The notes beneath the pieces were generated by a model. It made no database searches. It was not told the origin of the DNA and was given only the letters and a program-made list of their open reading frames with translations. Shown here in pieces: positions 846 through 62,576 of a stretch of DNA of 64,000 nucleotides (positions are counted from its first letter, which is position 1; each line of letters begins with the position of its first letter). Position numbers and translations under genes: made by a program. The DNA lies in contig OZ024753.1 of assembly GCA_964016885.1 (NCBI GenBank), forward strand, positions 434,001 through 498,000, read 5' to 3'. This stretch comes from Eledone cirrhosa. Taxonomy: Eukaryota.

Positions 846-910
846 TATTTTATTATATATATTTCAAGGGCGACCAAGACAACATTGGTGCGCTTTCATC
901 AGATAAAATA
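846..910 (-). ncRNA. Minimal type I hammerhead ribozyme motif (family A), inverted partner of 1110-1174
   Basis: Minus strand: TATTTTAT-CTGATGA-stem II-GAAA-TATATA-TA-ATAAAATA. Confidence 0.8.
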
Positions 911-1109
911 CAAAGTTTGTTTTTTGAATTCTCTCTCTTTCTCCAGTGTCATTTAAATAAACGGTTGCTTTTCAATTATTTACATATTCATTTGCATATT
1001 CACACATAAGTTTAAATAATCCCTAATATATTTCCACTATCCAGTGAATTTCCAACCGATAAGGTATGATTTTCATGGGTATGTCTCTATATTTATAAAA
1101 CAAACTTTG

Positions 1110-1174
1110 TATTTTATCTGATGAAAGCGTACCAATGTTGTCTTGGTTGCCCTTGAAATATATATAATAAAATA
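1110..1174 (+). ncRNA. Minimal type I hammerhead ribozyme motif (family A)
   Basis: Stem I TATTTTAT/ATAAAATA, CTGATGA 1118-1124, stem II AAGCGTACCAA/TTGGTTGCCCTT, GAAA 1155-1158, palindrome TATATA, UA cleavage site (after 1166). Confidence 0.82.
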
Positions 1175-1344
1175 AATATGGTTTTATAAATACAGTTTCC
1201 ATTTAATATCAGTGAATATTTACTCCAGTAACTTGTTGAGTGCTCTAAAACATTTATGTTTGTCGGACTTCCAACAAATTACATACAACTTCTACTTATA
1301 TATATATATATATATATATATATATATATATATATATATATTAC

Positions 1345-1990
1345 ACGTGTTCCAGCCGACAGGCTGTGGCCATGCTGGGGCACTGCCATACTTTCTACAG
1401 CCAGCCAGCCAGCCATCCTTGGTTGGTCATTGATGCAAAAAGGAGCTTGTTGATGTCTCCTTTATTTGCGCCTGGCCTCGTGCTATGAGTTCATCCGGGA
1501 TTTTGGTTTGCAAAATGTCGAAATGTTTCTTGAGAATATTTACATGAACACCATGTACATCTCTCAGACATTTTGGGGAGCTTATTAAAGAGTTGGGGGC
1601 TATTGCAGTATGTGGTCTTTATTCTTGATGCGAAGGGTGGGATCTTTGGCACTACACAGTGGCGTCGTGTGCGTGGGCTGGTCCGGGCCTCAATACCGAA
1701 ATTTGGTGCGGGCGCTTCCAGGATTTTCCATACGTATATCTCTGCTTATATCTCCCGTCTTCGCTCCAATGAGTAGAGCTTTAGTTCTTTCATCCTCTCC
1801 CATCATATCTTGCACTAAAGCAACCCTCTTAGTGTAGCTTCGTTGGATTGCTTCAAGTTCTGTGGTTAGTTTGCCACCACCGCTGAGAGCAATAGTCCAG
1901 TCGGCTGAGGACGAAAGTTCTCCAGAGGACTAACATGGTTTCCGGGTCTCTTGTCCTAAAAGTCTCCAGAATCCATCTGATTGACACCTA
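1345..1990 (-). mobile_element. CR1/L2-group LINE 3' fragment (degenerate); related copies at ~36130-36830 (+) and ~54555-55200 (-)
   Basis: Shared sequence among the three copies, with RT C-terminal-type peptide remnants (WRTFVLSQLNHCSLLWS...AIQRSYTKRI). Confidence 0.7.
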
Positions 1991-2599
1991 TATTGTTCTG
2001 CTCGCTGGAACAAAAAGATCAACTGCCTGCCTCTATAGTTGAAGGCTGACAAACATTTTGAAGCCAGTAATCTCTTGACAATCTGCAGGTGACCTCCAGT
2101 TATCTATTCCTCCAGACGACCTGGTGACACTTGTCCCAAACAAAGGAACTGAATATCTACGTGACTAAAAGTTCATGTATGGTCGCATTGACCTACTTAG
2201 CCAGGCTGGTAACAGAAGTTCAAATCAGACTGACTGCATTCGCTACATATATGAGTTAGTTAAGTTAAAGTCTGTTCTAAGCCAAAGGCTCATCAGGCAG
2301 GTGCTTATCCCTGGTTTCCTTGGTGTTAAGCAACTGAGATTACAAGACTCTCACTGGATAGGACGCCAGTCTATCGCAGGATTAACTTCCCAGCTACTGC
2401 TGGTACTCATTCTCAGTTGAGTGTACTGGAGCAATGTGAAATAAAGTGCTTTGCTCAAGAACACAACACAGTACCCTATCCAGAAATTGAACCGATAATG
2501 TTACGATTGTACGGCAAGCATCTTAACTATTAAGCCATGTCCCGTCACATGATGATATATATAATGGCGCCACATCCCAAAAGAAAACTAAAAATAGCC

Positions 2600-3470
2600 G
2601 ATCCAAATGTTCCTAAAGTGACGGAGTTCAAGTTCCTAGGGAGGGAATATAGTACCAGGCCCTGGATTAGACGTCCTACAACAAATATCCTTGGCATCGC
2701 AAGAGCTCAGCCGACCTAGAACTGCAATATGGTCGTCTCAAAATATTTCGAGAAGATTAAAACTCCAGCTCTACTGTGCACTGATATAACCGGTAGCCAT
2801 ATATGCAGAGGCATAACTATGGTATGGCAAGCATGCCACGTGCCATAGGCTCCACGTGAAGGGGGTGCCACTTGGACTAGGAGCACGTTCTATTAAAGTC
2901 AAATAAGCCTCGTCGCAGAGTGAAAAAAGAAACTCCTTCAGATGTATGATGTGTCTCTGATTATCATGCGTGTGAAACACTATGGTGGCTGTATCAAACC
3001 ATTTATATAAATTATTAGGCCCAGAGGTAAAAATACAGTGTTGGGCAGGGGCGCAACTTCACTGCTTGCCAAAGGCGCTATTTTCCCTAGTTACGCCTCT
3101 GCATATATGGCTCAGAAATTTGGATTACAAAAAGCGAAGAAATGTGTGCTCATGGAGTTTGAAATGAAATACTTAAGGGCGATGCTTGGTGTAACGCATG
3201 GATGGGAAATGCACATGAACACAGCTGAATAGGACCGACTAAGACAATTGAAGATACTGTAATTTTAGGACAACTCAGATAGTTTGACCATGAAGTCAGT
3301 AGTCATGAGGGAACAATGATCAATGCGAGCTACAAGTCAGATTTCACAAACCCGAAACAGAGGACGGCTTCTGAAGAGACATTTGCGACTACTGAGGGAT
3401 ACAACTGAGAGACAAGAGACCGCGACCAGTGGAGAAGGGATGTCGTTTGTTGTGTTACGAGGGGACAAAG
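2600..3470 (+). mobile_element. RTE-like LINE fragment (degenerate)
   Basis: FEMKYLRAMLGVT motif typical of the RTE post-RT region; frameshifted. Confidence 0.5.
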
Positions 3471-60780: not shown

Positions 60781-61202
60781 TTAACCCTTTAGCATTTACA
60801 TTATATATACTATTGTATATTCGCAGTAAAGGCTTTACTTCACATAAATATCTCACAATATTGAATCTATGAATGAAATTTTGATATCATTTATTTGGAG
60901 AACAATACCTTAATGTTGGATGAGCAGGCGGTTACGGCTGGTTTGAACAGAAAGAGCTGAGAGAATTCTGGTTGGATACAGCTGGCTTAAATGCTACAGG
61001 GTTAAACCAGCCATATCCAGCCAGAATTTTCTCACCTCTTTCTGTTCAAGCTGGCCATAATTGGCAGCTTATGCCGATGTTTAGGTATTGTTCTCAAAAT
61101 AAATAATATCAAAATCTCATAGATTCGATATTATGTGAGGTAAAGCCTTTACCGCGAATATACAATAGTATATATAGGGTAATGTAAATGCTAAAGGGTT
61201 AA
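60781..61202. mobile_element. Inverted dimer of the TTAA MITE
   Basis: 60781-61005 and 61002-61202 are opposite-orientation copies joined at one TTAA. Confidence 0.85.
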
Positions 61203-61220
61203 AAAAGACAAATAACTCAC

Positions 61221-61350
61221 ATGTCATGATTTTCTTTTGCATGTCATCTGTAAGTAAATCCCAGTCTTTACAGTGAGCTACCTGGTGAATATGTAGCTTT
61301 AAGTAATCTTCACTCTTCTTAAATAATGACTGGATAAACGTGATAAAATC
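61221..61350 (-). CDS. BTBD8: BTBD8-like internal exon
   Basis: ttttcag acceptor, GTGAG donor, phase 0/1, open frame DFITFIQSLFKKSEDYLKLHIHQVAHCKDWDLLTDDMQKKIMT (cf. recalled BTBD8 ...AVRHTESWKLMSTDDQQKI). Confidence 0.78.
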
Positions 61351-61871
61351 CTGAAAAGAGTTTTAAAAAAAGTGGTTAAAAGACAATTTCTAAAACTAAA
61401 TAATAGGCTGTTAATAATAATAGTCCAAAGTATACTAAGTCTAAGTCTAAAGTCTGTCTTAAGCCATTTAAGGTGCATTAGGCTGGTACTTATGCCAGTT
61501 TCTTGGTGATACATCTAAACTAACCAAATGTTCATATATTTCTGCTATAAGAAAAACACAGACATTTTATTTTTCTGGATTATTTTTCAATTCATTAACT
61601 TCACTACTCTACAGAGAGTAAATGTTAAGATTATTGGAATTTTATTACATGAAATAATATTCCATCTAAAACAAAAAAACGTGAAACAACAAAATGATTT
61701 GAAATCAGAAATAATGAATACTGAATTACAGAGTATTGAATTTATACATTTACTTTCATCATTCACAAATCAAAGTTTTGAGAAAATCACAGATTCATTC
61801 ATTGTGTCTTAATGGTGTGTGGGTGTGTGTGTGTGTGTGTGAGAGTGTGAGTGTGTGTGTGTATATATATA

Positions 61872-62058
61872 TAGGAAAAGGTATGACCCCGACGGCAGAG
61901 CTCAAGCCGTTTCGACGGCTATTTTTGAGTCCAGAAATAGCCATCGAAACGGCTTGAGCTCTGCCGTCGGGGTCATACATTTTCCTATTACCCACTCTAC
62001 TACCCTAAGTATTGAGTACTCTGGTGCGTCTGGTTCCTTACCACAATTCCTTCATTAT
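61872..62058 (+). mobile_element. Family B pLTR fragment with 5' fold-back inversion
   Basis: TAGGAAAA..GACCCCGACGGC..TTTCGACGGCTATTTTTG-AGTC-CAGAAATAGCCATCGAAACGGC..GGGGTC..TTTTCCTA; lies in (TA)n. Confidence 0.72.
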
Positions 62059-62521
62059 ATATATAATAAATGGAAAATATCTTTACAAAACCAAGTCAGA
62101 AAACAGCACAACTCCCATCAGAAACATTTTTTCACGCTCAGAGTTGCTGAAGCATGGAACAAAATACCTGCATCAGTTGTTAGCTGTCGAGACACTGCAT
62201 CCTTTAAAACCTCCATACTTCCTGAGATTCGCCAACACTACACCTAATGTTCCCCCACCATACACATGCACACATGTATATCTTGACTCATACACTATTC
62301 ACTTCCCTGACATTTGTATATTATTCTATGTACTATACATGCAATTTGACAAATTGTAGTGCACCTGAGCACTGTACACAATAATTTCATTCATTCATAT
62401 TTATTTTATTATACGTATTTCAAGGGTACTTATTGGTATAAGCACAATGAAGACTATCTTCATTGTGCTTATATCAATAAGTTCACATGAAGATATGTCA
62501 CTATCTTAACACCAAATATAG

Positions 62522-62576
62522 TTTATCTGACGAAAGCGTACTTAAATATTAGTATCCTTGAAATACGTATAATAAA
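62522..62576 (+). ncRNA. Minimal type I hammerhead ribozyme motif (family A), antisense in a BTBD8 intron
   Basis: TTTAT-CTGACGA-AAGCGTACT..AGTATCCTT-GAAA-TACGTA-TA-ATAAA. An inverted 3' half lies at 62402-62430. Confidence 0.8.

Follow-up and report, generated by a model that had tools for sequence, protein, structure and literature searches.

We propose that the hammerhead motifs in the window (the whole 64-kb stretch of DNA that was analysed) are 5'-truncated pseudo-LTRs (pLTRs) of coding Penelope-like elements (PLEs) of the Hydra clade inserted into (TA)n, and that each of their ends arose from a reverse transcriptase (RT) start at one of two sites set by a hairpin. On the sequence comparisons described here, the probability of this reading is roughly two in three. 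The new part and the most informative element is what the first-pass annotation had recorded as a tail of the motifs: a bulged hairpin which occurs twice (H1 and H2). We consider it fairly probable that this twin hairpin is a Hydra-clade-wide RNA structure, the putative binding site of a telomerase-like RT, each copy setting one UAU priming site. The pLTR hammerheads and the pairing of their palindromes are known biology. PLEs are the closest mobile relatives of telomerase, and the origin of their tails and inverted ends is a question for which one element has been studied in vitro.

Hammerhead motifs of the window and their coding sources

All six hammerhead motifs annotated from the letters alone were recovered with the same coordinates, strands and N6 sequences, and the predicted cut of the 1110 copy falls after 1166, as had been placed. 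A descriptor consisting of the core, a stem I of at least 5 pairs and a self-complementary N6 matched six times in the window and not once in any of 200 block shuffles. The core CUGANGA, GAAA and UH as well as stems I and II are present. The reading as minimal hammerheads of type I, of the kind found in Penelope pLTRs, is supported, as is that of a diversified family. Stem I TTTTAT/ATAAAA is common to five copies and differs in the 18126 copy. The pairing of stem II holds for the same five copies, which fold at −3.7 to −8.2 kcal/mol, but not for the decayed 18126 copy (0.0 kcal/mol alone, three wobble pairs). Since 846–910 and 1110–1174 are two arms of one inverted insertion, the six motifs represent five insertion events. 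The density of about one per 10 kb is local; genome-wide, a single strict pattern, which gives lower bounds, found 40,615 pLTR-type ends in 3.0 Gb, i.e. one per about 74 kb. The insertions and their neighbours are as follows:

794–929, minus strand: short arm, in inverted orientation, of a family B insertion, with hammerhead 846–910 (N6 TATATA); ends about 50 nt past the predicted cut, before H1
930–1296, plus strand: direct long arm of the same insertion, hammerhead 1110–1174; followed by (TA)22 at 1297–1341
1222–1244, plus strand: bulged hairpin H1, ACTC...TT-GAGT-GCT, in the family B long arm
18096–18343, plus strand: family E copy, hammerhead 18126–18174 (N6 ATCGAT); old PLE-like end followed by (TA)27
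21392–21552: second family A mini-insertion, hammerhead-less; short arm 21392–21439 (minus), long arm 21439–21552 (plus)
21702–21853, minus strand: family A copy, hammerhead 21739–21806 (N6 TGCGCA); short end 43 nt past the predicted cut, into (TA)n
24105–24369, plus strand: family C copy, hammerhead 24162–24227 (N6 TATGTA); long end, H1 half deleted
62396–62429, minus strand: inverted fragment with the 3' half of a family D hammerhead
62459–62715, plus strand: family D copy, hammerhead 62522–62576 (N6 TACGTA); H1 at 62630–62655, followed by (TA)27

The proposed targeting of (TA)n microsatellites was supported. An inverted long-tail fragment (21852–21883) was also observed beside the family A copy at 21702–21853. 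The TACTCCAG..GAGTGCT tail, which had been ascribed to most copies, is intact at 1222–1244 and 62630–62655 only. The stretch is half deleted in the 24162 copy (24281–24307), sits in the separate neighbouring mini-insertion in the case of the 21739 copy (21476–21503, an H1 with one substitution) and is missing from the 846 arm and from the 18126 copy, in which the twin hairpin was not found. Rfam, proposed earlier as a check, gave no hammerhead hit for the window up to an E of 1, and neither a hammerhead nor a hairpin family in the window and six junction loci. The Rfam matches there were only below-threshold, microsatellite-driven miRNA hits.

Four of the six motifs match pLTR ends of ORF-bearing Hydra-clade elements. 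The family B long arm is 78% identical over 438 nt to the pLTR of the ORF-bearing locus L044 (81–84% over 263–280 nt to L273 and L274), the family A copy 88% over 164 nt to the pLTR of L043, and the family C copy 84–85% over about 275 nt to the pLTR junctions L256, L267 and L268, the first of which leads into a Hydra-type ORF. The family D copy, whose long end lies 143 nt past the predicted cut, shows 89% identity to other copies and 83% over 286 nt to the B-type copy L074; its ORF link is indirect only. Judged by these matches, most of the window motifs are cut-off pLTR ends of Hydra-clade PLEs. The motifs had been described as non-coding retro-RNAs; instead, they correspond to 5'-truncated 3' ends of coding elements. 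All 30 fetched pLTR junctions lead into a Hydra-type ORF, 25 of them with a hammerhead upstream, and in each of L031, L035 and L043 a long open ORF is either enclosed by two hammerheads or adjoins them. An ORF near family C in L048 was rejected as a linked ORF because it belongs to a separate insertion.

The suggested search for linked Penelope RT/GIY-YIG ORFs yielded Hydra-type RT frames with a probable endonuclease. The frames comprise 808–821 codons (808 in the open frame of L043) and contain the YRDD motif of a telomerase-like RT of about 800 aa. Pfam and PDB sequence searches with the ORF protein found nothing. Its AlphaFold model (pLDDT 83) had TERT (3du5, E 1.3e-7) as the best Foldseek match, and the predicted fold is closest to TERT. 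In the C-terminal domain, Y34, Y47, G49, R58, H62, E119 and N132 are invariant, and the modelled fold weakly matches T4 EndoII, Hpy188I and I-TevI (E 0.3–0.8), which are GIY-YIG nucleases; a GIY-YIG endonuclease is probable. The aligned ORFs share RLRW, SDKT, CNCRIKNKC, CNLC..E and N..CLH. At the level of sequence, they have the RWK-type motif, DKT, the CxCx5C linker and CxxC/CxH around E and N and lack CCHH, which is the definition of the Hydra clade (PMC8557442, section 11). The tandem and inverted pLTRs, optional tail and (TA)n insertion of this clade are all present too.

The twin hairpin and the two ends

The hairpin follows the pattern RCTC-stem-TN-GAGY-RC and occurs twice at the pLTR–ORF junction. 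The full order of the element is hammerhead, 50–60 nt, H1, about 90 nt, H2 and the ATG of the RT-endonuclease ORF, and the H1..H2 junction pattern gave 921 matches compared to one in the control. The element has two 3' ends, and 0–8 nt downstream of each lies a hairpin, preceded by a TAT that corresponds to the (TA)n target. Genomic copies end just 5' of H1 (short) or H2 (long) at TAT/TA microhomology, so that the 3' ends are bimodal. In family F, which is not AT-rich near the ends, the short end precedes H1 by exactly 5 nt and the long end precedes H2 by exactly 3 nt, both following a TAT. Inverted pairs combine one long and one short end in 47 of 54 cases, and both arms share private variants, which indicates the same source. 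The possibility that two palindrome-paired RNAs from different loci supply the two arms was not supported: no mixed-subfamily pair was found among 53, and the six flagged pairs proved to be truncation junctions, indels or two insertions 3.9 kb apart (L041).

Hydra relatives from marine samples have the hairpin as well, in 35/47 tails compared to 1/41 controls. Their inner pairs covary, being Watson–Crick in 59, 41 and 38 of 65 cases, as against 30.6, 19.4 and 15.7 after shuffling, in tests which treat the sequences as independent and ignore relatedness. TAT lies at most 12 nt upstream in 52/62 versus 10/62. Twelve of the 15 informative marine 3' ends lie 0–6 nt before the hairpin and three 12–27 nt from it, with eight of 23 rows left out (six at the contig end, two read-through) and the hairpin offsets of L128 and L129 set by eye. 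By a strict hairpin pattern, two hairpins were present in only 16 of 40 marine ORF loci, and in all 16 H2 is 37–59 nt upstream of the ATG. The spacing of H1 and H2 is 43–79 nt in the marine elements and about 90 nt in this genome.

Proposed mechanism and alternatives

According to the model, the element protein, probably as a dimer, would bind H1 and H2 on one RNA and nick both strands of the (TA)n target. Each of the two DNA 3' ends would anneal to the UAU that precedes one of the hairpins and start one cDNA; both cDNAs would abort early and be joined head to head. If each hairpin sets one RT start, one RNA may prime both target strands, and a protein dimer acting in this way would account for the tail, for inverted insertions being joined head to head and for the requirement of a template that is either tandem or a circle made by the ribozyme. 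The hammerhead would act only as a dimer, held together by the 8-nt palindrome of stem III. It would release unit-length RNAs from multi-unit transcripts, and these might then be circularised. Circularisation would place H2 behind the ORF, an order that full copies with a long end require, whereas the hammerhead would not have to act in every short insertion.

Stem III forms an 8-nt palindrome, A-U-R-Y-R-Y-A-U, and the predicted cut site is AUA. Selection on the self-complementary N6, pairable only between two molecules, had been proposed before and is supported by the centre pairs, U·G being found 8,407 times and C·A 495 times among the 40,615 ends; by these counts, selection on the palindrome appears to be for pairing between the RNAs of a dimer. 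In dimer cofolds, stem III formed between the strands in five of the six window copies, but not in the 24162 copy. The G10.1–C11.1 pair expected of minimal hammerheads is not the rule, since the first stem II pair is A-U in 63, G-U in 41 and G-C in four of 112 variants, and pair 4 of stem II is a fixed C·C or C·U mismatch. With an all-AU stem I and G10.1–C11.1 missing, the hammerheads may cut poorly. It is conceivable, though rather doubtful, that the motif no longer cleaves and that the palindrome persists as a relic or as a signal for the RNA to dimerise or fold. The non-canonical stem II base, the AU-only stem I, the altered 5' core of the young Hydra family F and a broken palindrome common to both arms of some insertions all fit this, as does the finding that catalytic mutants of a Poseidon element left insertion in vitro unaffected (PMC11167929). 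However, subfamilies whose stems are unrelated have retained the catalytic core, covariation is seen in stems I and II, and none of the 53 inverted pairs has arms from two subfamilies. This alternative applies to the ribozyme step alone; the hairpin model can hold alongside it.

The twin hairpin might act as DNA or cDNA instead, in endonuclease recognition or in the resolution of an integration intermediate, and set both ends in that form. Craig et al. attributed the tail to endonuclease-mediated resolution (PMC8557442), and according to a citation in Frangieh et al. (PMC11167929) earlier work found the Penelope tail to be needed for DNA recognition by the endonuclease. Wobble and mismatch counts in the hairpin stems do not separate an RNA from a DNA reading, and the wobble counts do not favour RNA. 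Nevertheless, we regard this reading as unlikely, because long-ended insertions lack H2 and short-ended ones lack H1. A hairpin that matches the end but is left out of the inserted DNA fits a template site 3' of the start, and the stem covariation points to a single strand.

It is still less likely that the hairpins have a role in expression (as promoter, at translation start, or in the stability or export of the RNA), that their closeness to the ends is a coincidence and that TA-rich microhomology alone sets the ends. The position of H2 before the ATG in the 16 two-hairpin marine loci and the AT-rich junction would agree with this, but the sharp ends track both hairpins in spite of the changed spacing, and family F ends 3–5 nt before each hairpin where it is not AT-rich. 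A non-coding, non-autonomous, retrozyme-like family spreading as small circular RNAs, as assumed in the first-pass annotation, is very improbable. In its favour, most copies are short, a tblastn search of the window and of 8 kb to each side gave no RT remnant, hammerheads are occasionally in tandem 200–300 nt apart (L039, family E) and family E had no linked ORF in 15 loci of 6.5 kb. However, the copies of families A, B and C correspond to pLTRs that belong to coding elements, and dispersed 3' ends, a variable 5' length and inverted arms differ from 150–450-nt tandem arrays (PMC7229834). Family E itself appears PLE-like by its inverted arms, its (TA)n and its two ends, which are separated by about 30 nt. 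ORFs near it in L052, L107 and L114 were rejected as links, being separate insertions.

The hammerheads alone are ordinary, except for their copy number, the AUA/8-nt variant and the clean genomic signature of dimer pairing. The twin hairpin offers a motif that is short, mutable and probably clade-wide and for which start sites are predicted exactly, in a genome with young families and open ORFs, and its pattern detects Hydra elements that Pfam and Rfam miss. If the hairpin model is true, the motif would give PLE reverse transcription a defined cis-element, in a position comparable to that of the RNA elements which anchor the RT in telomerase.

Relation to known systems

The elements share with the Hydra clade (PMC8557442; e.g. 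Hydra-1_Obim of Octopus bimaculoides) RW-x, DKT and the CxCx5C linker, a probable C-terminal endonuclease without CCHH but with CxxC and CxH around E and N, the (TA)n target, the hammerhead near the 3' end and tandem plus inverted pLTRs. Compared by eye, they belong to other families than Hydra-1_Obim, as the protein start and the hammerhead differ. Their units are 3.7–3.9 kb long rather than below 3 kb, stem III is an AU...AU palindrome in contrast to AC...GU in all listed Hydra hammerheads (and in 52/54 marine ones), and the fixed mismatch at stem II pair 4 and the tail of about 90 nt are further differences. The words 'hairpin' and 'stem-loop' are absent from the main text of Craig et al. 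2021 (PMC8557442).

In PAc, a Poseidon element of Anolis carolinensis (Frangieh et al. 2024, PMC11167929), two internal RT starts bound the tail, both target strands are cut and extended, and a protein dimer is predicted. Two starts bounding the tail and a protein-binding region 3' of or around them, here inferred from sequence, are common to both systems, and the hammerhead of PAc is dispensable in vitro, similar to what is proposed here for short insertions. PAc belongs to another clade. Its starts are located within the ORF, in a stem-loop rich in AC, and were reported to be non-homologous to the target, unlike the TAT match found here; its tail has 30–40 nt instead of about 90 nt. A repeated motif like the twin hairpin is not described in the main text of that study.

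The minimal PLE hammerheads (Cervera and de la Peña 2014, PMC4209133) are likewise of type I with a palindromic stem III and a dimer model, and occur as dispersed single motifs from truncated PLEs and as opposite-strand pairs 100–700 bp apart. Their stem II starts with a conserved G10.1–C11.1, whereas it is A10.1–U11.1 or G-U here, and they number 2,000–9,000 per genome compared to at least 40,615. Non-LTR retrozymes (Cervera and de la Peña 2020, PMC7229834) also carry type I hammerheads in animal repeats, but they are non-coding 150–450-nt tandem arrays with canonical hammerheads, whereas the motifs described here appear to be ends of coding elements.

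Hammerhead copies and their coding relatives

The six hammerhead motifs, starting at 846 (−), 1110 (+), 18126 (+), 21739 (−), 24162 (+) and 62522 (+), lie where the first-pass annotation had placed them. A descriptor combining the core, stem I and the self-complementary 6-nt stem III palindrome (N6) found 6 matches in the window vs 0 in 200 block shuffles; an Rfam search of the window left these motifs undetected. With a strict pattern based on the shared stem I, 40,615 matches were obtained in the 3.0-Gb genome (reversed control, 0), i.e. one per about 74 kb, so hammerheads are denser in the window than on average.

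The six motifs had been read as non-coding retro-RNAs. For at least four, this is incorrect, since they match pseudo-LTR ends (pLTRs) of ORF-bearing Penelope-like elements. The 21739 copy (family A) matches the pLTR of locus L043, the 846 and 1110 copies (family B), which are two arms of a single inverted insertion, match those of L044, L273 and L274, and the 24162 copy (family C) those of L256, L267 and L268. The 62522 copy (family D) has stem I and the hairpin described below in common with B-type copies (83% identity), and no tie to an ORF was found for it. The 18126 copy belongs to an old family (E; 2,233 first-look candidates, 78–83% identity among those scored) whose arms are inverted and whose two ends are separated by about 30 nt; no linked ORF was found among 15 of its loci, nor any ORF remnant in the window.

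Further features of the window
9020-9206, 14080-14266, 42758-42944, 43096-43282 and others: dispersed SINE-like repeat, at least 14 copies in one orientation and 9 in the opposite one
13394-13598, 24677-24856, 50992-51241, 51750-52000, 61862-62065: five short inverted insertions of a further Hydra family, F
36832-36948, +: hammerhead-less fragment of family E
37824-39005: 23-bp minisatellite, 51 copies
40911-41750, +: probable host exon with a C2H2 zinc finger, presumably of KLF type, at its end
58994-59626, −: 210-codon open frame resembling a host exon
62060-62247, +: C-terminal fragment of a LINE-type reverse transcriptase (RT) beside insertions of families F and D, resembling ORFs in locus L050

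The linked RT ORFs that the first-pass annotation had proposed to look for were found among loci fetched around closely spaced hammerhead pairs: L031, L035 and L043 contain open frames of 775–821 codons between or beside two hammerheads. The encoded protein has 37 homologs (28–41% identity), one of them named (Argonauta hians, 37%), and Pfam and PDB sequence searches with it gave no match. Its predicted structure is a confident model with TERT as the best fold match, and the C-terminal domain weakly matched GIY-YIG nucleases in a fold comparison. RLRW, DKT, CxCx5C, CxxC and CxH motifs are present, without CCHH. It is by these features that Penelope-like elements are assigned to the Hydra clade, described with (TA)n targets, hammerheads and one listed Octopus family (PMC8557442); judged by this motif set, the ORF-bearing elements belong to that clade. 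Between the RT and the endonuclease, the L031 and L043 ORFs have an asparagine-rich insert of low model confidence (residues about 590–665), which marine homologs lack and which resembles the N-rich inserts of rotifer Penelope elements described in PMC3846280.

Twin hairpins and insertion ends

The TACTCCAG..GAGTGCT tail noticed earlier is a bulged hairpin (2-nt bulge) of the form RCTC-stem-loop-stem-TN-GAGY-RC. Among 78 Hydra-like loci from marine metagenomes, it was found 3' of the hammerhead in 35/47 tails vs 1/41 upstream controls; 58 loci have it on the sense strand vs 9 on the antisense strand. Inner pairs 1–3 are Watson–Crick in 59, 41 and 38 of 65 distinct sequences vs 30.6, 19.4 and 15.7 after shuffling, which is uncorrected for relatedness and includes a few mis-delimited rows. 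Marine hairpins have G-C as their outer pair, and the first hairpin (H1) of the E. cirrhosa genome has A-U. Two hairpins, H1 and H2, occupy the pLTR–ORF junction in 16 of 40 marine ORF loci (strict pattern), 43–79 nt apart. They are about 90 nt apart in the E. cirrhosa genome, where the pair pattern gave 921 matches vs 1 in the control; all 30 fetched junctions had a Hydra ORF downstream and 25 had a hammerhead upstream.

Copies end about 40–60 nt (short end, before H1) or about 130–155 nt (long end, before H2) past the predicted cut, followed by (TA)n. Family A ends 4–6 nt before H1 or H2. Family F, which is not AT-rich at the junction, ends after TAT, leaving 5 nt to H1 or 3 nt to H2. Twelve of 15 informative marine ends lie 0–6 nt before a hairpin (the other three are 12, 13 and 27 nt off), TAT occurs within 12 nt upstream of 52/62 hairpins vs 10/62 farther upstream, and in each of these sets the hairpin adjoining an end is excluded from that insertion.

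Among 54 head-to-head pairs chosen from match listings, 47 combine one long and one short arm. Six were scored as short-short, four of these with a 106–152-nt arm carrying a decayed hairpin, and one as long-long, with one arm continuing into an ORF. Inverted pLTR pairs in which one member bears a tail were previously known (PMC3846280). Paired arms are mostly mutual nearest relatives, or tied as such, and have private variants in common, so both derive from a single source.

Family F has 373 junctions genome-wide, a Hydra ORF in 11 of 15 loci (L282–L296) and arrays of 3.5 kb that hold as many as four junctions. Its hammerhead-like motif retains stem I, stem II, GAAA, a long stem III and GUC; with the 5' core altered to CUUGAGAAGA or CUUGAAAAGU, the motif could be either a ribozyme variant or a dead ribozyme.

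Stem III palindrome and stem II

Genome-wide, N6 is TRYRYA in 39,148 of the 40,615 strict-pattern matches (centre CG 21,355; TA 8,891; TG 8,407; CA 495). Breaks of the outer pair are symmetrical (A·C 313, G·U 342), as expected of decay after insertion. Central U·G exceeds C·A 17-fold in a strand-specific manner. Since the two central bases are adjacent and unable to pair within one molecule, this excess points to pairing in a dimer. A few prolific subfamilies account for most of these counts, but among the matches listed TATGTA is the usual N6 of no fewer than three stem II types, and C·A centres are scattered across all stem II types (100 matches listed). Stem II covaries at pairs 1–3 and 5–7 (98–108 of 112 variants paired); pair 4 in families A–D is a fixed C·C or C·U mismatch (4/112 paired), a candidate tertiary contact. 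In marine Hydra hammerheads (L119–L196), 33 of 54 have a 9-nt stem III, leaving a central mismatch in the dimer.

A strict need for cleavage is argued against, in line with the rival view that the ribozyme is no longer catalytic, by TGCACA in both arms of L222–L225 and TACGCA in both arms of L204 and L228–L230; L222–L225 and L228–L230 were selected for these broken palindromes and yield no rate. Ribozyme mutants likewise left insertion of a Poseidon element in vitro unblocked (PMC11167929).

Possible mechanism and known elements

With anatomy, end positions, covariation and arm pairing established at the sequence level, a mechanism may be proposed. The element protein, probably as a dimer, would bind H1 and H2 on one RNA, nicked (TA)n strands would pair with the UAU preceding each hairpin, and two cDNAs would be synthesised, terminate early and become joined head to head. 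Alternatively, the hairpin could act as DNA or serve expression. In a simple pLTR-ORF-pLTR transcript, both proposed sites lie upstream of the ORF, so that the products of the proposed synthesis would be mostly short pLTR pieces. Such pieces do predominate: two patterns that differ in strictness gave 921 junctions and at least 40,615 ends with a hammerhead. For a full copy with a long end, like L043, H2 has to lie downstream of the ORF, which calls for a template that is circular or comprises several units. The circle could be supplied by dimeric hammerhead cleavage, a route proposed in PMC4209133.

The hammerheads themselves are further members of an already known kind, and the palindromic stem III with its dimer model has been published (PMC4209133; PMC6765202). 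The hairpin has no Rfam family, neither 'hairpin' nor 'stem-loop' appears in the main text of PMC8557442 or of PMC3846280, and no paper describing it was found by title or abstract start in a search covering little of the subscription literature. As a candidate new cis-element, the twin hairpin renders an open mechanistic question directly testable, and by eye the published Hydra-2_Amil, Hydra-1_Ajap (twice) and Hydra-2_Ajap elements carry the hairpin motif as well.
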